64,000 nt of DNA from an uncultured virus (IMG/VR IMGVR_UViG_3300020183_006727). Its lineage: Duplodnaviria > Heunggongvirae > Uroviricota > Caudoviricetes. Shown here one piece after another: positions 3,035 to 28,290 of the stretch; the first letter of the stretch is position 1, and each line of letters begins with the position of its first letter. The DNA lies in the IMG/VR virus record IMGVR_UViG_3300020183_006727. One strand, given 5' to 3'. The notes beneath the pieces were generated by a model that did not search any database, had not been told where the DNA came from, and saw nothing but the letters and a program-made list of their open reading frames with translations. Both the position numbers and the translations under genes were made by a program.

Positions 3035-3528
3035 CGGGAAAACCTTTCAACAGCCAATTTGAATTCTCTACATGCCCTGTCAACTAGTGCAGAACAATTT
3101 CTGACATGATCGACAAAGTCTTGCATTTCAATGATCTTAATAATTTGACCCAAAGAGGCTATCTCCCCAGCAGTGGCACGCCTCTGGGGTTCGTACAGGC
3201 TTTTTATCTTCATGTCTTTAGCCTCGGGACAAGACTTCCTGTTCTTCTTTTTACCAAAAAATATTGCTGGTTTTTCAAGCCTGACTTCAGTCATAATCAA
3301 TGATTCTTCAATTTTTTCAATGATATTTTGGATCAGGAAGGACAGAAAACTTCTGTCGTAATCTGTTCCTTCCGAACCATGCAGGTTCAAATTGACAAGA
3401 TCATCTCTAGGGGTAGGGGGCAGAGGGTTATGATTGAAGATATCGATACCAGATTTAATATAAACGATGGCGTCGTTGGCAATCCGTATGCCCATTTCTG
3501 TCAAAGTGTCATCTATGTCGTTTGGCAT
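3031..3528 (-). CDS. Hypothetical protein
   Basis: 165 aa, first of a three-gene minus-strand unit. Confidence 0.7.
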   Translation of the reverse strand: MPNDIDDTLTEMGIRIANDAIVYIKSGIDIFNHNPLPPTPRDDLVNLNLHGSEGTDYDRSFLSFLIQNIIEKIEESLIMTEVRLEKPAIFFGKKKNRKSCPEAKDMKIKSLYEPQRRATAGEIASLGQIIKIIEMQDFVDHVRNCSALVDRACREFKLAVERFSR

Positions 3529-3573
3529 GTTCTTCTAGAGGAATTTTCGACCATTACTAGCAAAATACCTTGC

Positions 3574-4380: not shown

Positions 4381-5373
4381 TTAGGTGCCCTGAGCAGATG
4401 ATTGCTGAACTGCCTGAGACGCCGCAGCAGGAACAGATGCATACCTGCCACTGTACATGAATTGCCCAGCTTGACCGTTATACTCAATCTCTGCCCAGAA
4501 AATGTTCTGTCCACGCGCAAACGGTCCGTAAAAGCCAGTTTCTGACACCTCGTTGTTTGGGAACCAATATTGCGGCTGGTCTGCGACAATCATCTGGGCG
4601 AGAACCTGATCGGAAACCTTGGGCGCAGACGGCATCTTTTTGATGGCATCGAGCACGACTGCCAGTCCTTGTTCAACGAGAGACAGAAGCCCCACACCAG
4701 AACCGCCCTGCTGACCAGGAGTCGCAGCCTTGGGCTTTCCACCTGCATCTGCCTGCTGAGTAGTGGCCCCCTTGCCGCCTGCCTTGTCTTTCGCAGCGGC
4801 GGTGGATTGCTGTGAGTCGCTTGCGTCAGTTGTGTTGACTGATGATGGGGTTTCTTGGGCCTTGGGCTGCTTCTTACCTGCAGGTTGTCTTGAAGGCTGA
4901 TGTGTCGGCTGCTGAGCAGGCTGCGTCGGCTGCTGAGCAGGCTGCTGTAGGGCAGACTGAATCCTTTCCAACTCATATTTCAGTATCTGGATAGCCTTCT
5001 GTTCCCTATTTTCCCCTAATGGTTTGAGTCGCGGCTGAAGCCTGAATGCATTATCTATGGCGGACTCCCTATTTGAAAACAGTCCAGTTTCTGACATTTT
5101 CTTGATGTAATACTCAAGTAACTTTTTCTTGCTTGCGGGGTCAAGAGATTCGTAGTGCGGACCACCGATGGCGATGTACCATTCCTTGCCTCCATCAAGC
5201 CAACTCTTGGCTTCGGCGGCTATGGCAGCATTCTCTTTATCAGCAGCCATCTGGTTAAAGGATTGTGCCTGCTTTGAGCGTGCAATATCCCTGAACATGT
5301 CGAGAACCATGCTTGCCTCATTTGGGTCTGTGAGGGTGGTCAGTGGTCCAAAGCCTGTGTAAATTTTATCCAT
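4381..5373 (-). CDS. Hypothetical protein with Gln/Pro/Ala-rich linker
   Basis: Start at ATG 5373 (MDKIYTG), 1 nt after upstream stop; PAQQPTQPAQQPT duplication. Confidence 0.75.
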   Translation of the reverse strand: MDKIYTGFGPLTTLTDPNEASMVLDMFRDIARSKQAQSFNQMAADKENAAIAAEAKSWLDGGKEWYIAIGGPHYESLDPASKKKLLEYYIKKMSETGLFSNRESAIDNAFRLQPRLKPLGENREQKAIQILKYELERIQSALQQPAQQPTQPAQQPTHQPSRQPAGKKQPKAQETPSSVNTTDASDSQQSTAAAKDKAGGKGATTQQADAGGKPKAATPGQQGGSGVGLLSLVEQGLAVVLDAIKKMPSAPKVSDQVLAQMIVADQPQYWFPNNEVSETGFYGPFARGQNIFWAEIEYNGQAGQFMYSGRYASVPAAASQAVQQSSAQGT

Positions 5374-5374
5374 G

Positions 5375-5863
5375 TTAAGTTCCCTGCCCTTGGTGGGCTC
5401 TAAGTTCCTGTGTCGGCTGCCACTTTCCACCTGTCTGCAGCGAAATGACCCACTTCATGTCAACAGGCTGACCTGAATACTGATGTGGACCAGTCCAAAC
5501 CTCATATGAATCCTCTCCGACCTGAGTCGGAGTGGTTACCTGTGCTGCATTTGGATTGTATTGCCACGCTGGTTGTGCAACAGCCTGTTGTCCTTGCGAC
5601 TGCTGAACCATCCGCTGAGATGTACTAGGAGCTCCCCACTGAGATGTATCAGGAACTGTGCCCATGTTGCCAAGCGGAGCTGCGGCCACATTGTCCCTGG
5701 ATGTTGCAGAAGGCCCCCATGCACGAATCGAGCCTGCACCCCGGGCTGCCATGTCCCTTGCTGATGGGGCCACTGGCTGGGCAGCGCTGCCAGAAAGACC
5801 AACATCACGAGCCCTCATACGTTGGGCTCCAGACACTTCAGATGACTGAGCAACCTTATCCAT
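5375..5863 (-). CDS. Low-complexity hypothetical protein, putative head-internal
   Basis: 162 aa beginning MDKVAQ; tight operon spacing. Confidence 0.7.
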   Translation of the reverse strand: MDKVAQSSEVSGAQRMRARDVGLSGSAAQPVAPSARDMAARGAGSIRAWGPSATSRDNVAAAPLGNMGTVPDTSQWGAPSTSQRMVQQSQGQQAVAQPAWQYNPNAAQVTTPTQVGEDSYEVWTGPHQYSGQPVDMKWVISLQTGGKWQPTQELRAHQGQGT

Positions 5864-7928: not shown

Positions 7929-8609
7929 TTATACCTTTCTTGGTTTTTTTAAAACCCCCTCCAAAGAAGATAATGAATAGTCGGCGGAAATTGACACCGT
8001 CACCTCAAAAAAATGCTTTCTTTGCTCCACGTCAACAACCCATTTGTACCTCGGATCCCCCTCCCGCTTCCTGCGGTCAACCACCTGCTGTATGGTCTCC
8101 CCAGTGCGCCCCTTCTCTCCAAATATATCCTCAGACACAGGTTGGGTTTCCTCACCCTGTGGCGCTGATTTTTTGATCACTAAGACACAGTCGTCTTCAG
8201 GTAGATCACTTATGTCTAAATCCGTGATTTGTATGTCATGGAGTGGTATTGCCTCTGGCGTGGCTCCACCCAATATTCTTTCCCTTATGGCTTCACGGAT
8301 TTTATGGAGCATGTCGGTTTCTAGAATCTTGGATACTTCGTCTCTCCACCTGTCCATGGCTTGGACATCGTCGTCGCAAACATAACTAGTTTCAGACATG
8401 ATTTGGATCAGATTTTTTATCACACCTGGCTTGCAGTCAAATCTGATCCATGTGTTTGCTTTACCCTTTGACTTCATCATCCCGTTGCTAACATCGAATT
8501 CGGCGATAATGCTGTCAGGCTGTATACCTCTATCCAATGCAGAAGTAATTATTTCTACCGCTGCCTTGTGTGGCTCAATTTCCGATAAAAGTTCTTGAAA
8601 GGTTTTCAT
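7929..8609 (-). CDS. Acidic hypothetical protein
   Basis: ~226 aa ORF; start ATG 8609 or 8615. Confidence 0.7.
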   Translation of the reverse strand: MKTFQELLSEIEPHKAAVEIITSALDRGIQPDSIIAEFDVSNGMMKSKGKANTWIRFDCKPGVIKNLIQIMSETSYVCDDDVQAMDRWRDEVSKILETDMLHKIREAIRERILGGATPEAIPLHDIQITDLDISDLPEDDCVLVIKKSAPQGEETQPVSEDIFGEKGRTGETIQQVVDRRKREGDPRYKWVVDVEQRKHFFEVTVSISADYSLSSLEGVLKKPRKV

Positions 8610-8613
8610 CTGC

Positions 8614-9486
8614 ATGTATTGGCTCAAAAGTTTGAAGTTGAAGAATTTTTGTGGGTTGAAGGACGCAAGTTTTGACTTCTATCCAGAAAACAGACCGTTC
8701 TCCGTATTTTTCGGACCAAATGGCACGGGTAAGTCAACACTTATGCATGCCATCAGGATTGTTTCCACCCCAAGAATGCTGAGGGGGCGTGATAATTCTA
8801 TGCTGTTCAGAAAATTGACATACAATCCTGATTATGACCCAACTATGGCTGCCTACATTCCATCTTCAGAGCCATGCAGTATGTATGCTGAATTTCTTCA
8901 TGATGGTGGAGTATCGAATGTCTCCATCATAGGTGGAGAAATAGTTGAAAATGGGCTTGAAGAAGCCCCTTCAGGATCAGATGGTTGGGCTGCCTACTGT
9001 GATGCAGACCACCCCATGAATATGTACAAGTTTCAACTCCCATCTCATTTGGGAGAAAGGTTTCTTAAACTTGCTGACGAGGTTTATGGGTTGCCTTGTG
9101 AACTCGGAAAGCTTGTGACAACAGCCGAATCAGGTGAAAGGGTGGATTTCTATCAGGATTTCTGTATCAGAAAAGGGTTCACTAGGGTTCACCACAAGAG
9201 AATGAGTGATGGAGAGAAAAAGATAGCAACATTGTTGCGTCATCTTTGCATGAAGTTGTCTGATGACAGGAGTATGGCTTTAGTTGACAATCTTGAGATG
9301 CATGTCTATTTCCGTAGGCATCCACGATTGGTTAAGGCTTTGAATATTCAATTCCCAAAAACACAGTTCCTGTGTACCACACATAGTGATGGAATCTTGA
9401 GGACTGTCCGTCAAATGTGGGGAGAATCATCCCTGATTGATATGCAAAGTATGCATCCAGACTGGTCTGATGCATCCGCTGAATAA
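8614..9486 (+). CDS. ABC-type ATPase (AAA_21/SMC-head-like)
   Basis: LKSLKLKNF start, Walker A GPNGTGKST, signature MSDGEK, Walker B ALVDNLEMH, H-loop TTHS. Confidence 0.88.
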   Translation: MYWLKSLKLKNFCGLKDASFDFYPENRPFSVFFGPNGTGKSTLMHAIRIVSTPRMLRGRDNSMLFRKLTYNPDYDPTMAAYIPSSEPCSMYAEFLHDGGVSNVSIIGGEIVENGLEEAPSGSDGWAAYCDADHPMNMYKFQLPSHLGERFLKLADEVYGLPCELGKLVTTAESGERVDFYQDFCIRKGFTRVHHKRMSDGEKKIATLLRHLCMKLSDDRSMALVDNLEMHVYFRRHPRLVKALNIQFPKTQFLCTTHSDGILRTVRQMWGESSLIDMQSMHPDWSDASAE

Positions 9487-9559
9487 ATAAATGTTCATGA
9501 ACACCTAGTTCAGGAAAGAATTTGGCATTGCTCTTAAAAATAGGTATCAACTCAATTGG

Positions 9560-10090
9560 GAATGACCATCAAGGCAGAATGGTGGTGCACAATCCTGGCT
9601 CCGCCGGATGTGCACCACAGCCGTTGGACCTTCGGCCCAACGGTGTATAGGTATATTATATATATACAGATTTACAACAACGACATACGACCCGTGATGT
9701 AGAGACAATAATCCCTTGTCTTTGCCACTCTTGCCAAGAACATCTTGATACACCCAAACACTGGCAAGAGGTCATCCTCCATCAAGGTGTATCATCCCAT
9801 CCGACCATGACTGATCGATATGTTTCATAAGCACACCTGGGACGGTGCACGGGCAGACTTCCTGTAGACTGTAGAAACCCCATCGGTGACACACATGCGC
9901 CTTGTGGATGCATGATGCCTAATAGCTCCCGACTCCTGAGCATACTTGAGCTGTTGGACCAGACTTACGTCCGTCGGGGGCGATTGCTCAAAACCCATCA
10001 GGCGCCCCCAGAAGCGCCACACCAAGATTTTGGTCTCCGATACAGGCGAGAGACCTATCTAATTATTCGTCCTACGGGTGGTCGGAAAAC
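9560..10090 (-). ncRNA. Candidate large structured non-coding RNA (family unassigned; ends approximate)
   Basis: No credible ORF; at least eight inverted-repeat stems, a pseudoknot-compatible pairing and a long-range stem; mismatches become G-U pairs on the minus strand. Confidence 0.55.
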
Positions 10091-10181
10091 AAAAAATACT
10101 GAAAATTGTCAACTTATCTGCACGAAGAATTTTTTCAGATGGGGGGAAAGAACCAGTTTTTGTGAAACATCTTTTGTGGCT

Positions 10182-11108
10182 ATGTCTCCAAATGTTCCGA
10201 TTTCCAGACTGAAAGATCTTGCTGATGTCGCAAGACATCAGCCACAGGACGGCAATACGCTGGTTTGGAATCAGTCCCAGGGCAAATGGGTACCAGCCAC
10301 TATTGTTAGACAGAAGACTGAAATATCCCCAACACAGCCCCCGTCGCCATCTTTAGGTGGGCGTTGGATAAATCCTATAACTGGTAGGGAGGCGGTATGG
10401 TACACAGATCCGCAGGGAAGGTCTGCATGGGTTGAGTTTGGTTCTGAGGGAGACTTTTTACAACTTTCTGCAGCCACCACAGCCATGGTCTTGATCCAGT
10501 CCCCAACCGTCAGTCAGATCATCATCCACGGCCGACGCAAGTGGCAGTGGGACGGCACAGCGTGGCGCCTGTTGTCGCCACCAAAGCTTGAGGGCCTGTC
10601 AAATCAGGACGGCACCATATCCGTGTCACTGTCCAATGGTGGAACAGCAACAGTTTCCGTATCTTCCGTGCCATTGTCAAAAATAGCACAGAGCGGTGCA
10701 GCATCTGGACAGGTTCCCACATGGACTGGGTCTGCATGGGTTGCATCTTCTCCAGCTGGCGGTGCAGGCATCACAGACGGAGACAAGGGCGACATCACCG
10801 TCAGTGGTTCTGGCTCCACATGGACGATTGATTCCGAAGTGGTTTCAACATCTAAGCTCGGTGGAGATATTACGGCGGCAGGCAAAGCCCTGCTTGATGA
10901 CCCCGATGCCAACACGCAACGAGCAACGCTAGGGCTAGGGACTGTTGTAACTAGAGATGTTGGCAACGGAGAAGGAAATGTTCCTGTCTTCGATAGTCTT
11001 CTCAGGTACCCATCTGGAGATGGGTCACTGATATATGGAGTTGATGCTGATTATCTCGAGGGATACACAAGACAACAGATCACCAGGGCGGGTTTATTCA
11101 GTAACTAA
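10182..11108 (+). CDS. Tail/head fibre-like protein
   Basis: Start ATG 10182; fibre motifs LKDLADV..PQDGNTLVWN, GQVPTWTGSAW, DGDKGDITVSGSG, ALLDDPDANTQRATLGLG. Confidence 0.8.
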   Translation: MSPNVPISRLKDLADVARHQPQDGNTLVWNQSQGKWVPATIVRQKTEISPTQPPSPSLGGRWINPITGREAVWYTDPQGRSAWVEFGSEGDFLQLSAATTAMVLIQSPTVSQIIIHGRRKWQWDGTAWRLLSPPKLEGLSNQDGTISVSLSNGGTATVSVSSVPLSKIAQSGAASGQVPTWTGSAWVASSPAGGAGITDGDKGDITVSGSGSTWTIDSEVVSTSKLGGDITAAGKALLDDPDANTQRATLGLGTVVTRDVGNGEGNVPVFDSLLRYPSGDGSLIYGVDADYLEGYTRQQITRAGLFSN

Positions 11109-26076: not shown

Positions 26077-28290
26077 ATGGCAACCAAGAAAAACGCAAGT
26101 AGTGAATCGATGGTGGACAACAAGACATATGCAAACGGAACTATAGTTCCGCTGCCGCTGACCAAGGCGGCTCAATATGTTGGTGGGAATGTGTCCACCA
26201 TATTCACCCAGCCGATGTTTTTCTCTCCTCTGCACACTCCGCAGAGTTGGCAGATAGCAAGCAGACGCAAGGAAGTGTACCAGTGGGCGCGTTTCTATTA
26301 CGAAAACGAGCCAAAGGCTGCTGGTGGTATAGATTTCTATGCAACATTCCCCATGAATGGATTCAAACTGGAGTGCAGAGATCGAAAGGTCTTGAACTAT
26401 TTTGAGCACATGGTTGAAAAACTCAACCTTGATCACTGGTTCAGAAAGATATCGCACGAATATTTTTTGCTTGGTGATGTTTTCGTGTTTTTGGAAATAG
26501 ACTGCCCAGTGTGCGGAGGTAGGACAAACCTTCCTGACGGCACGATATGCAACCATCCGGGCGGAACATTCAAAAGACTGATGATCCTCAATCCAGATTT
26601 CGTTGAGGTTCAAAACACGCAACTTGCCGACCACCCAACAATTGCCATGTTGCCAGATGATGATCTACGCAGAGTGGTGCAGCAGAAGAAGCCAAAGGAT
26701 ATCTATGACAAGATATCTCCGCAGGTTCGTGACCTTGTTGCCGCCGGGCAGGCCATACCTCTTAGTCCGCGCTGCGTGAGTCATTTGCGACATAAGGGGA
26801 GTCCTTATGGAACTTATGGAGAGTCATTGCTGCGTCGACTCTTCATGACGATTGCATACAAAACCAAGTTGATGACAGCGAACTGGATCGTGGCAGAGCG
26901 TCATATATTGCCAATAAGAATAGTAAAGGTTGGCACTGCCGAGCGCCCTGCAAATGAGATGGATATTGCAGATGTGCAGGCTCAACTTGCTGCAGTGGCA
27001 AATGATCCAAATTTGACCATTGTTACTCACCATGCATTCGAGATGACTTGGGAGGGTGCAACTGGCAAAATCCACGATATAAGCAATCAGCTCGAATATG
27101 TCGGCAAGGAGATGCTTGACGGTCTAATGCTCAACCAGACCTTGCTCAACGGAGAGATGCAGGCTTATTCTGGTGCTGCTGTTGGCGTGGAGACCCTCAT
27201 CAGAAGACTTGAAACCTGGCGTATGGAGTTGGCACAGTGGGCAGAAAGAAACATATTCTTACCCGTTGCTCAAATGCAGGGTTTTGTTGACACAGTAAAA
27301 TCGAAGCAGTTGAACGAAACTGTATGGCTGTATCCAAGAATAAAATGGAACGATCTTCGTCTTCGTGACAACTCTGAATCGTTGAACAAGATTATTCAGT
27401 TGTATGACAAGCAGGTTATCAGCAGGCAAAAGTTGCTTGATACATTTGATATAGACTTTGATATTGAGGTTGCACGCATCAGGGAAGAACAGGTTATGGC
27501 GGGTACTGGAGGTCAGGTTCTTGGCGGACAGCCTGGTGGCGGCGGTGGCGGCGGCGGAATCGGAGACCTAGGAAGCATAATGGGCGGATTGGGAGGTGCT
27601 GGTGGTGGTGCGCCGCCTGCTCCAGCCCCCATGGGCGGAGGTGCACCGCCGATGGATTTGGGGATGTCTCCGCCTGGTGGTGCTCCATCGGCAATTCCTG
27701 CCATGGGTGGCAACCCTGGTGCTCCGCCCATGGCGGCAGCCGCATCTATTTTGTCAGGAAAGATATTTAAGAAGGGCAAGGGGCCAAAGGCAAAAGATAT
27801 GCCCAAACCTCCACAGCCTACGAAGATATTTTTGACAAAGCCGGAGCAGAAGTTGGCATCGATCCTCAACCAACTTGCGGTTCCGTACCCACTTTTTGCA
27901 CAATTCCAGCAGTACATGCCAGGTCAGAGACAGCCATTCCTTCTAGATTTTGCATATCCTCAAATCGGAGTTGATGTGGAGGCAGATGGAGAAATGTGGC
28001 ATTCAGATCCCGAAGCCATTGAGCGTGACCGAGCAAGAGACATGAAACTTGCACAACTTGGTTGGCGGGTTATAAGGATAAAAGAGGGTGCCCTCAACAG
28101 TCGGGTGGACGAAGTTGCTCAAGTTGTGATGTCAAATATTAGAGAAGCGATAGAAGAGCGGAGGATTTTGGGCAAAACTTCGGCATCTTTATCTGATGGA
28201 GAGCCTCGTGTCATTTCCACAGATGTGGCCGACATTTTCTTACCAACAGGTGCATCCCATGCTGAAGATTTCAGCACGCAGGATACGTGA
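26077..28290 (+). CDS. Portal protein with C-terminal DUF559/Vsr-like endonuclease domain
   Basis: Portal-like EYFLLGDVF, ILNPDFV, SPYGTYGESLL, PIRIVKVG; lies between terL and protease; C-term LDFAYP..GVDVEADGEMWH...RDRARD..L..LGWRVIRI. Confidence 0.88.
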   Translation: MATKKNASSESMVDNKTYANGTIVPLPLTKAAQYVGGNVSTIFTQPMFFSPLHTPQSWQIASRRKEVYQWARFYYENEPKAAGGIDFYATFPMNGFKLECRDRKVLNYFEHMVEKLNLDHWFRKISHEYFLLGDVFVFLEIDCPVCGGRTNLPDGTICNHPGGTFKRLMILNPDFVEVQNTQLADHPTIAMLPDDDLRRVVQQKKPKDIYDKISPQVRDLVAAGQAIPLSPRCVSHLRHKGSPYGTYGESLLRRLFMTIAYKTKLMTANWIVAERHILPIRIVKVGTAERPANEMDIADVQAQLAAVANDPNLTIVTHHAFEMTWEGATGKIHDISNQLEYVGKEMLDGLMLNQTLLNGEMQAYSGAAVGVETLIRRLETWRMELAQWAERNIFLPVAQMQGFVDTVKSKQLNETVWLYPRIKWNDLRLRDNSESLNKIIQLYDKQVISRQKLLDTFDIDFDIEVARIREEQVMAGTGGQVLGGQPGGGGGGGGIGDLGSIMGGLGGAGGGAPPAPAPMGGGAPPMDLGMSPPGGAPSAIPAMGGNPGAPPMAAAASILSGKIFKKGKGPKAKDMPKPPQPTKIFLTKPEQKLASILNQLAVPYPLFAQFQQYMPGQRQPFLLDFAYPQIGVDVEADGEMWHSDPEAIERDRARDMKLAQLGWRVIRIKEGALNSRVDEVAQVVMSNIREAIEERRILGKTSASLSDGEPRVISTDVADIFLPTGASHAEDFSTQDT

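Follow-up and report, generated by a model that had tools for sequence, protein, structure and literature searches.

A conserved non-coding element with an H-type pseudoknot, a candidate minus-strand structured RNA, between an ATPase gene and a tail-fibre-like gene of uncultured phages

The genome of an uncultured lake virus of the class Caudoviricetes contains a gene-free gap of 689 nt (9487-10175), located between an ABC-type ATPase gene and the first tail-fibre-like gene. The window, that is, the whole 64,000-nt stretch of DNA analyzed here, forms part of a virus contig of 100,465 bp (IMG/VR record IMGVR_UViG_3300020183_006727), and its PHROG and Pfam matches include a large terminase, a portal and tail fibre proteins, the terminase exhibiting only ~25% identity to that of the closest cultured phages. 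The original prediction, made from the letters of the window, described positions 9560-10090 as an ORF-free, heavily base-paired segment and a candidate large phage RNA. This observation is confirmed in part: the gap and the pairings are real, but the thermodynamic pairing of the core, one of the stems and the long-range closure are not upheld. Likewise, of the reading as a structured non-coding RNA, a conserved, non-coding, structured element with covariation stands, and the multibranch closure, the same stem and a core marked by its folding energy fall away.

The completeness estimate for the 100-kb record is only 22%, and contigs that are near-identical or related to it extend to 130-164 kb. 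More distant homologues of the ATPase (loci L148 and L149) lie on still longer contigs (333 and 498 kb). Very large (jumbo) phages may make up the clade.

The upstream ATPase (290 aa; 8614-9486) can be aligned with its orthologues over its full length, and its stop is conserved. It is PtuA-like according to PADLOC and NCBIfam, yet its PtuA score is 42 bits against a cut-off of 500, and the protein is thus not a member of PtuA. For the downstream tail-fibre-like gene the likeliest start is the GTG at 10176 and not the ATG at 10182 which an ORF caller would choose: the GTG and the residues following it are kept in 6 of 6 sequences, while none of the five distinct relatives retains the ATG. This GTG has no Shine-Dalgarno sequence ahead of it. 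A conserved T-run block is located ~10-25 nt upstream of the start of the gene. On its other side, the ATPase is accompanied across the whole clade by a 232-aa protein of no known family (7929-8627, minus strand), whose gene is divergent from the ATPase gene, the two starts overlapping by a few bases; it shares 32% identity with its counterpart in locus L137 (an ORF of ~224 aa on the minus strand), and a Protein Atlas look-up gave no usable match for it. The 232-aa protein and the ATPase may form a module.

The claim that the gap is free of ORFs holds in that no conserved ORF was found. The longest stop-to-stop frames in the window's gap reach up to 115 aa, and the ORF at 9912-11108 extends upstream of the real start of the tail-fibre-like gene. 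Alignments show indels of 1-2 nt that break the frames between close relatives, and blastp of translated segments across lineages gave matches no longer than 42 aa, spread over many frames of both strands. Together with the conservation of the core (see below), the broken frames and the short, scattered matches indicate a region which is selected but non-coding. A small minus-strand ORF starting from a conserved purine block was considered and rejected, since the length of a hairpin loop within it (27, 28 or 29 nt) shifts the frame.

Nor does the gap match a known family of RNAs, in agreement with the original prediction, which had found no resemblance to tRNA, tmRNA, RNase P or an intron. Rfam covariance models gave 0 matches in the 64-kb window at the gathering score, a permissive search of 9400-10300 (E up to 10) gave only a chance match to snoR1 (E 4.3), and the gaps of seven relatives (E up to 1) gave nothing; the families without a match include ROOL, GOLLD, riboswitches, ribozymes, RNase P, 6S and group I/II introns. 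ARAGORN placed 0 tRNA or tmRNA genes in the window and 0 in five relatives, and blastn of the region against 50,697 phage records returned no match. A self-splicing intron was rejected because the two flanking genes have boundaries of their own: the stop of the ATPase is conserved, and so is the start of the gene downstream. A retron or other RT-associated non-coding RNA was set aside because an RVT_1 match is absent from the 100,465-bp record, which is itself estimated to be incomplete. The best second match of the region in the genome record is 16 nt long; there being no further copy, the element is neither a repeat nor the template of a diversity-generating retroelement (DGR).

Relatives were collected by means of the ATPase. 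Its protein search of viral contigs gave three loci, two of them identical to the window in this region and one L004 (ATPase 91% identical), and the search of metagenome contigs gave 11, namely four with the downstream region, one cut off and six distant. ATPase identity to the window is 93% in L015, 91% in L016, 73% in L017 and 76% in L018. Each of the five distinct relatives has the element at this position, flanked by the ATPase and the tail-fibre-like gene, and the resulting window group comprises three lineages: the window with L004, L015 and L016; L017; and L018. Distances between successive conserved blocks in the six sequences are 27-29, 88-93, 170-188, 68-80 and 28-29 nt. The core (~9701-10078) exhibits 84-90% identity to L004, L015 and L016; in the same comparison identity is 85-88% over the whole ATPase gene, 69-72% at the third positions of its codons and 51-63% in the flanking spacers. 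These figures show a core with the signature of purifying selection in the absence of coding.

An alignment-based scan with the ATPase yielded 16 further loci, which comprise twelve (L137-L147 and L152) and four (L148-L151). ATPase orthologues beside the element in the window group are 73-93% identical, and those of the twelve, which form the distant group, are 45-46% identical to the window's. The gene order is kept in the twelve: a minus-strand ORF of ~224 aa and then the ATPase, separated from a small tail-fibre-like gene by ~560 nt poor in ORFs. In the other four the ATPase is 37-42% identical and there is no gap. Seven distinct sequences of the twelve were read, the other five sharing ORF maps only; with this scope, an element of the same architecture occurs at the same place in 12 distant phage contigs. 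The distant-group gap agrees with the window group in its pseudoknot architecture and in a set of short motifs, which follow one another in identical order. Wherever sequences were read, namely in all six of the window group and in seven of the 12 distant-group loci, both domains of the element are present. Profiles of the window group run with nhmmer against all collected loci found no further members and no link to the distant group, and a covariance model made from the distant group (R1) did not find the window group, with filters off too. Since neither approach joins the groups, their homology rests on synteny, architecture and short motifs, and the two are probably homologous. Exact and degenerate DNA pattern scans of viral and genome contigs returned the known relatives and chance matches in coding DNA. 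With 13 distinct sequences examined, the family is small, and kinship among them inflates the shuffle controls.

The features of the locus are the following, where "finder" refers to the helix finder used on the aligned sequences and a dot stands for no strand assigned.

8614..9486, plus strand: ABC-type ATPase gene, 290 aa (Pfam SMC_N / AAA_21 / AAA_15), conserved neighbour upstream of the element
9487..9580, dot: spacer after the ATPase stop, 53-63% identity to close relatives
9581..9618, dot: hairpin H1, with an outer perfect 10-bp stem (9582-9591/9609-9618) and an inner stem (sequence, folds)
9621..9643, dot: hairpin H2, 10 pairs, 3-nt loop (helix search)
9644..9700, dot: AT-rich spacer, 51-60% identity to close relatives
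9701..9722, minus strand: conserved block, apparently unpaired, beside the pseudoknot (by-eye alignments); its 10-nt core is common to the distant group
9723..9794, minus strand: H-type pseudoknot with compensatory changes in both stems, composed of a 4-bp extension (9723-9726/9771-9774, bulge 9727), the stem H3 (9728-9736/9762-9770), a loop segment (9746-9754) with its partner (9786-9794), and a conserved connecting strand (9775-9785)
9802..9817, minus strand: hairpin H5, 6 bp (finder, window group and L018), with other sequences at the same place in L017 and L018
9831..9850, minus strand: hairpin H6 of 7 bp, whose stems in the three lineages are unrelated in sequence (finder)
9854..9871, minus strand: hairpin H7, 6 bp with one mismatch in the window, three unrelated stems in three lineages (finder for L004, L015, L016, L017 and L018)
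9872..9888, minus strand: strongly conserved block, in which 9882-9886 can pair with 10037-10041 in the loop of Hf
9894..9914, minus strand: hairpin Ha, extendable, with wobble and mismatch changes among close relatives
9962..9971, minus strand: 3-bp hairpin with a tetraloop (9965-9968) that follows the GNRA pattern on the minus strand; the four close sequences have three variants of this loop
10001..10018, minus strand: hairpin He, 5 bp, 8-nt loop, with a compensatory change in the close group and a minus-only wobble in L016
10032..10055, minus strand: hairpin Hf, three stems in three lineages; its loop motif also occurs in the distant group (by eye)
10069..10078, minus strand: conserved 10-nt block, an anchor among the conserved blocks
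10079..10142, dot: spacer, 67-75% identity to close relatives, followed by a conserved block ahead of the start (10143-10175) (alignment)
10176..11108, plus strand: tail-fibre-like gene (PHROG tail fibre match), likeliest start GTG 10176

All eight pairings listed in the original prediction are present in the sequence at the coordinates given. In an alignment-free helix search of the 13 distinct sequences, the hairpin 9728-9736/9762-9770 (H3) is perfect Watson-Crick in all 13, with six arm sequences, and the pairing of its loop with a segment outside the stem (9746-9754/9786-9794) has a counterpart of 6-10 bp in all 13, with differing sequences. The top helix returned for two of the 13 (the window and L018) is an alternative register and not the homologous one; the homologous 9-bp pairing of the window is the one originally named. 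On the minus strand the connector is conserved, purine-rich and 11-13 nt long, and the loop segment pairs just beyond it. When loop and partner were shuffled 2000 times, scores at least as high as observed were reached 6 times in the window, 159 in L004, 39 in L017 and 355 in L018, and 18 times in L137, 1 in L138, 17 in L146 and 734 in L141. The support per sequence thus runs from strong to weak, and the pairing recurs with different letters in every lineage.

The aligned columns convey the same picture. Read on the minus strand, 84.4% of 243 cells are paired in the window group, versus 26-45% with slid partners, a value lowered by MAFFT setting some L017 and L018 arms out of register; none of 500 shuffles was as high, and 10 pairs are changed on both sides. 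In the distant group 95.0% of 120 cells are paired, versus 38-48% with slid partners, again with 0 of 500 shuffles as high, and 6 pairs are changed on both sides. With a loop-to-outside pairing kept by compensatory change, the predicted fold is an H-type pseudoknot. The idea of a ribosome mimic, prompted by an apparent Shine-Dalgarno-like core in the connecting strand, was dropped because this core is lost in the distant group.

The remaining hairpins of the core vary in how they are conserved. H5 has no counterpart in the distant group, and in L017, where the finder chose another helix, a 4-bp hairpin was read by eye at its place. H6 contains two non-Watson-Crick pairs in the window, which are wobbles on the minus strand only. 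In the window the finder again passed over H7 in favour of another helix; this stem, which has an A-A mismatch, was traced by eye. The stem of the hairpin 9962-9971 covaries in L018, by eye, the finder having chosen another helix there as well. Among the stems originally proposed in this part, 10032-10037/10050-10055 (Hf) is substantiated by covariation across lineages, and 9894-9898/9910-9914 (Ha) is retained for the close relatives, recurring in the four close sequences but lacking a clean equivalent in L017 and L018. The stem 9976-9982/10003-10009 is not maintained, being in competition with a hairpin at 10001-10018 that is better supported and shows a compensatory change. The same applies to the long-range pairing 9800-9807/10079-10086, proposed to close a multibranch domain of 280 nt, which is broken in L004 and L016 and overlaps the covarying hairpin 9802-9817. 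On the whole, the comparisons show predicted hairpins and an H-type pseudoknot kept through compensatory changes.

Two further long-range contacts are advanced here as tentative. A second pseudoknot, of 4-5 bp and covarying in part, may form between 9882-9886 and 10037-10041. The ends of the distant-group RNA may be joined by a 12-bp helix, which is paired in 81% of cells versus 51-67% when slid, with 5 double-change pairs, a level reached by 17 of 500 shuffles. The candidates obtained for a terminal closing helix and for a second pseudoknot in the window group were inconsistent. The half 9891-10078 differs between lineages, and the second domain of the distant group has its own helices, in which 11 pairs carry changes on both sides. 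The block 10069-10078 is likely near the 5' end of the predicted minus-strand RNA, a boundary drawn from the drop in conservation.

The description of the core as heavily base-paired does not survive comparison with shuffled sequence, than which it folds no better. The z-score of the minimum free energy (MFE) for the core (9700-10090; 100 shuffles) is -1.86 on the plus strand and -0.56 on the minus strand, and pieces of the pseudoknot domain lie between -0.35 and -2.6. For 9560-10090 (100 shuffles) the values are -4.80 (plus) and -3.26 (minus), and for the whole gap (20 shuffles) -4.35 and -2.51, respectively. Because z is strong only when 9581-9643 is included, the thermodynamic signal stems from the two perfect hairpins and not from the core.

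These two hairpins, H1 and H2, may have to be regarded separately from the folded core, as terminator or 3'-end hairpins shared by convergent transcripts. H1 is probably a terminator or 3'-end hairpin, and its assignment to the RNA is uncertain. The motif of its inner loop recurs in hairpin loops of L017 and L018 with different stems, according to a reading of the alignments. H2 has a lone non-Watson-Crick pair in the window and L015, which is A-C on the plus strand and G-U on the minus strand. T-rich tails follow the hairpins beside the ATPase gene on the plus strand in L017 and L018 (by reading); a scan for intrinsic terminators at 9581-9643 in the window reported none. The second post-ATPase hairpin of L137 (3416-3438; also in L138, L143 and L146) has a symmetric tandem G-A/A-G pair on the plus strand and an upper stem that covaries; as the tandem pair is kept on the plus strand, this hairpin is suggested to act on the plus transcript. 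The T-rich tails and tandem G-A pairs suggest that the flanking hairpins serve the plus transcript. The 3-nt loop of H2 in L004 is the reverse complement of the window's, with the stem kept. A short C/G-rich motif occurs in or between the post-ATPase hairpins of all lineages, with differing stems around it (window 9594-9607; L017 ~2410-2470; L018 ~3490-3530; L137 ~3455-3470).

The strand from which the core would be read is indicated by pairs that are tolerated on one strand only. A strand-neutral helix finder, in which G-T counts the same as A-C, gave 28 wobble cells of the minus-only type versus 11 of the plus-only type, several of the latter coming from doubtful helices in misaligned parts; reading of the unambiguous helices in the four close sequences gave ~10 minus-type sites versus 1 plus-type. 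RNAalifold energies are -82.5 kcal/mol on the minus strand versus -69.1 on the plus strand in the window group, and -42.3 versus -32.0 in the distant group. The proportion of paired cells in the distant group is 95.0% (minus) versus 85.0% (plus), with little difference between strands in the window group (84.4% versus 82.7%). In the distant group the main helix has a 4-bp extension with two invariant pairs, each a wobble on the minus strand and an A-C mismatch on the plus strand. All three variants of the tetraloop 9965-9968 in the four close sequences fit GNRA on the minus strand and differ at N only. The better MFE z-score of the core is on the plus strand. Promoter and terminator scans placed none for the minus-strand RNA, with 3 promoter-like sites found versus 3.7 expected. 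On balance, the minus-strand polarity put forward originally is favoured by the wobble asymmetry, the RNAalifold energies and the GNRA loop, and we consider with good confidence that the element would be read from the minus strand.

The explanation we moderately favour is that the core (~9701-10078) constitutes an independently transcribed, minus-strand structured RNA gene whose family is not in Rfam. The best-supported reading of its size is a putative RNA of ~380 nt (the core) to ~500 nt (with the hairpins 9581-9643, into which the RNA may extend). Read in this manner, the RNA gene would run towards the ATPase gene (convergent) and away from the tail-fibre/structural operon (divergent). The RNA would fold around the H-type pseudoknot, the purine-rich connecting strand presumably lying along a composite helix of 11-13 bp, and it may act in trans during infection as a folded scaffold or a protein-binding RNA. 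Even where ATPase identity has fallen to 45%, the element stays next to the ATPase gene, which makes this co-conserved neighbour the most obvious candidate partner, although the partnership is a guess. A bolder proposal would see here a new large, pseudoknot-centred class of RNA restricted to one clade of big uncultured freshwater phages, acting as a ribonucleoprotein with the PtuA-like ATPase and perhaps the 232-aa neighbour; we hold it to be doubtful. If true, the RNA and the ATPase would form a module of a kind not described for phages.

The main rival to a minus-strand RNA gene is a cis-acting leader of the tail-fibre/structural operon on the plus strand, which we regard as unlikely but as deserving serious attention. 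In such a scheme a promoter in the AT-rich spacer, following the terminator hairpins of the ATPase, would give rise to a structured 5' UTR of ~480 nt controlling the elongation of late-gene transcription or translation. The order of hairpins, AT-rich spacer, structured region and gene on the coding strand accords with it, as do the T-rich tails in L017 and L018, the better MFE z-score on the plus strand, the conserved block just ahead of the start codon, and the fact that every helix is equally possible as Watson-Crick on that strand. The evidence on polarity points the other way, namely the 28 versus 11 wobble cells, the RNAalifold energies in both groups, the invariant extension pairs of the distant group (mismatches on the plus strand) and a GNRA pattern seen on the minus strand only. 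Moreover, the window group offers a candidate pairing of the element with the start-codon region, but nothing equivalent is present in the distant group. Somewhat less probable still is a cluster of separate small elements, in which terminator hairpins, a pseudoknot RNA of ~110 nt and a second, independent structured domain merely adjoin. The variable AU-rich linker of ~50-70 nt between pseudoknot and second domain in the distant group would suit this arrangement, along with a second domain that differs between the two groups and the weak z-scores of the core; it is hard to reconcile with block spacing kept across the whole core, with domains always found together (6 of 6 in the window group and the seven distant-group loci read, of 12) and, tentatively, with the end-joining 12-bp helix of the distant group, which 17 of 500 shuffles reach.

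The two remaining explanations dispense with RNA. An element acting as DNA, be it a replication origin, a packaging site, protein-binding inverted repeats or a structured single-stranded signal, could account for a long non-coding stretch near the boundary of divergent gene blocks, for the perfect inverted repeats at 9581-9643 and for the AT-rich segment adjoining them. A compensatory pseudoknot, many short hairpins and strand-specific tolerance of wobbles would be unexpected of duplex DNA, no iterons or repeats were found, and the GC-skew minimum lies at ~8500 and not in the gap, so that this possibility appears highly improbable. Even fainter is the prospect of a decayed gene or a small unannotated protein gene. 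The stop-to-stop frames of up to 115 aa and the upstream reach of ORF 9912-11108 are what it has to offer, against frame-breaking indels of 1-2 nt between close relatives, peptide matches across lineages that never exceed 42 aa and fall in many frames on both strands, and, within the one minus-strand ORF that has a conserved start site, a hairpin loop that may be 27, 28 or 29 nt long.

Comparison of the predicted minus-strand RNA with known systems reveals likenesses of several kinds. As in retrons of the Ec78 type, which combine a structured non-coding RNA with a PtuA ATPase, a gene for a PtuA-like ABC ATPase lies beside a structured, putatively transcribed element; unlike them, there is no RT in the 100-kb record (a fragment), the ATPase scores 42 bits against 500, and an HNH partner is missing. 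Retron msr/msd RNA is also far smaller than the present element. The packaging RNA of phi29 is a phage-encoded structured RNA that works with an ATPase, but the likeness is one of idea only, the phage studied here having a canonical large terminase and portal and the element no sequence or model match. Pseudoknot operators of the T4 gene 32 type are small, reside on the mRNA strand and lie directly 5' of the regulated gene. The present element shares with them an H-type pseudoknot in a phage intergenic region, yet its favoured strand is the opposite one, and the pseudoknot is ~380 nt from the next start codon, in a much larger conserved element. Fremin et al. 2023 (PMC10690425) mention such operators of phage mRNAs, among them the autoregulatory pseudoknot of T4 gene 32.

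The same study reports 8,495 candidate structured RNAs from IMG/VR, averaging 67 nt (PMC10690425). The present element resembles these in its data source and in combining intergenic conservation with covariation in uncultured phages, and differs in being several hundred nt long. None of six sample numbers taken from the names of element-bearing contigs occurs in the supplements of that study outside three files, and given those three files a fragment of the element may have been listed earlier. The portions consulted of the Minerva preprint (10.64898/2026.09.22.753630) contain nothing on the element. ROOL and GOLLD are large, ornate RNAs of phages and prophages that form Rfam families (10.1101/2024.12.08.627333). 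The present element is like them a large, structured, phage-associated RNA candidate of unknown function recognized by comparative analysis, and unlike them it has no Rfam match, belongs to a much narrower family and has no tRNA genes nearby. It is rated as a putative new family within the known kind of large orphan phage RNAs which ROOL and GOLLD represent.

Few large, elaborately folded RNAs without known function have been found in bacteria and phages, and each has opened new questions. The family described here is narrow, and its structural core is unusually well supported for a metagenomic candidate; with a well-supported pseudoknot core, a fixed genomic position and a clear strand prediction, the RNA could be synthesized and probed directly. 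Should it act with the adjacent ATPase, it would provide an RNA component for a protein family otherwise known from defence systems. Should the element instead be a plus-strand leader, it would represent an unusually long control element for phage late genes.

Two observations concern other genes of the window. The product of 4381-5430 (minus strand) gave a weak Pfam match to the first helical domain of C2c1 (Cas12b), with E 0.002 and 17.7 bits against a cut-off of 27, which is probably due to chance. The portal protein (26077-28290) matches Portal_Mu at residues 206-403, and its C-terminus (residues 620-688) matches DUF559 above its cut-off and REase_MTES_1575 just below; it is an apparent portal-nuclease fusion with an endonuclease-like C-terminal domain.
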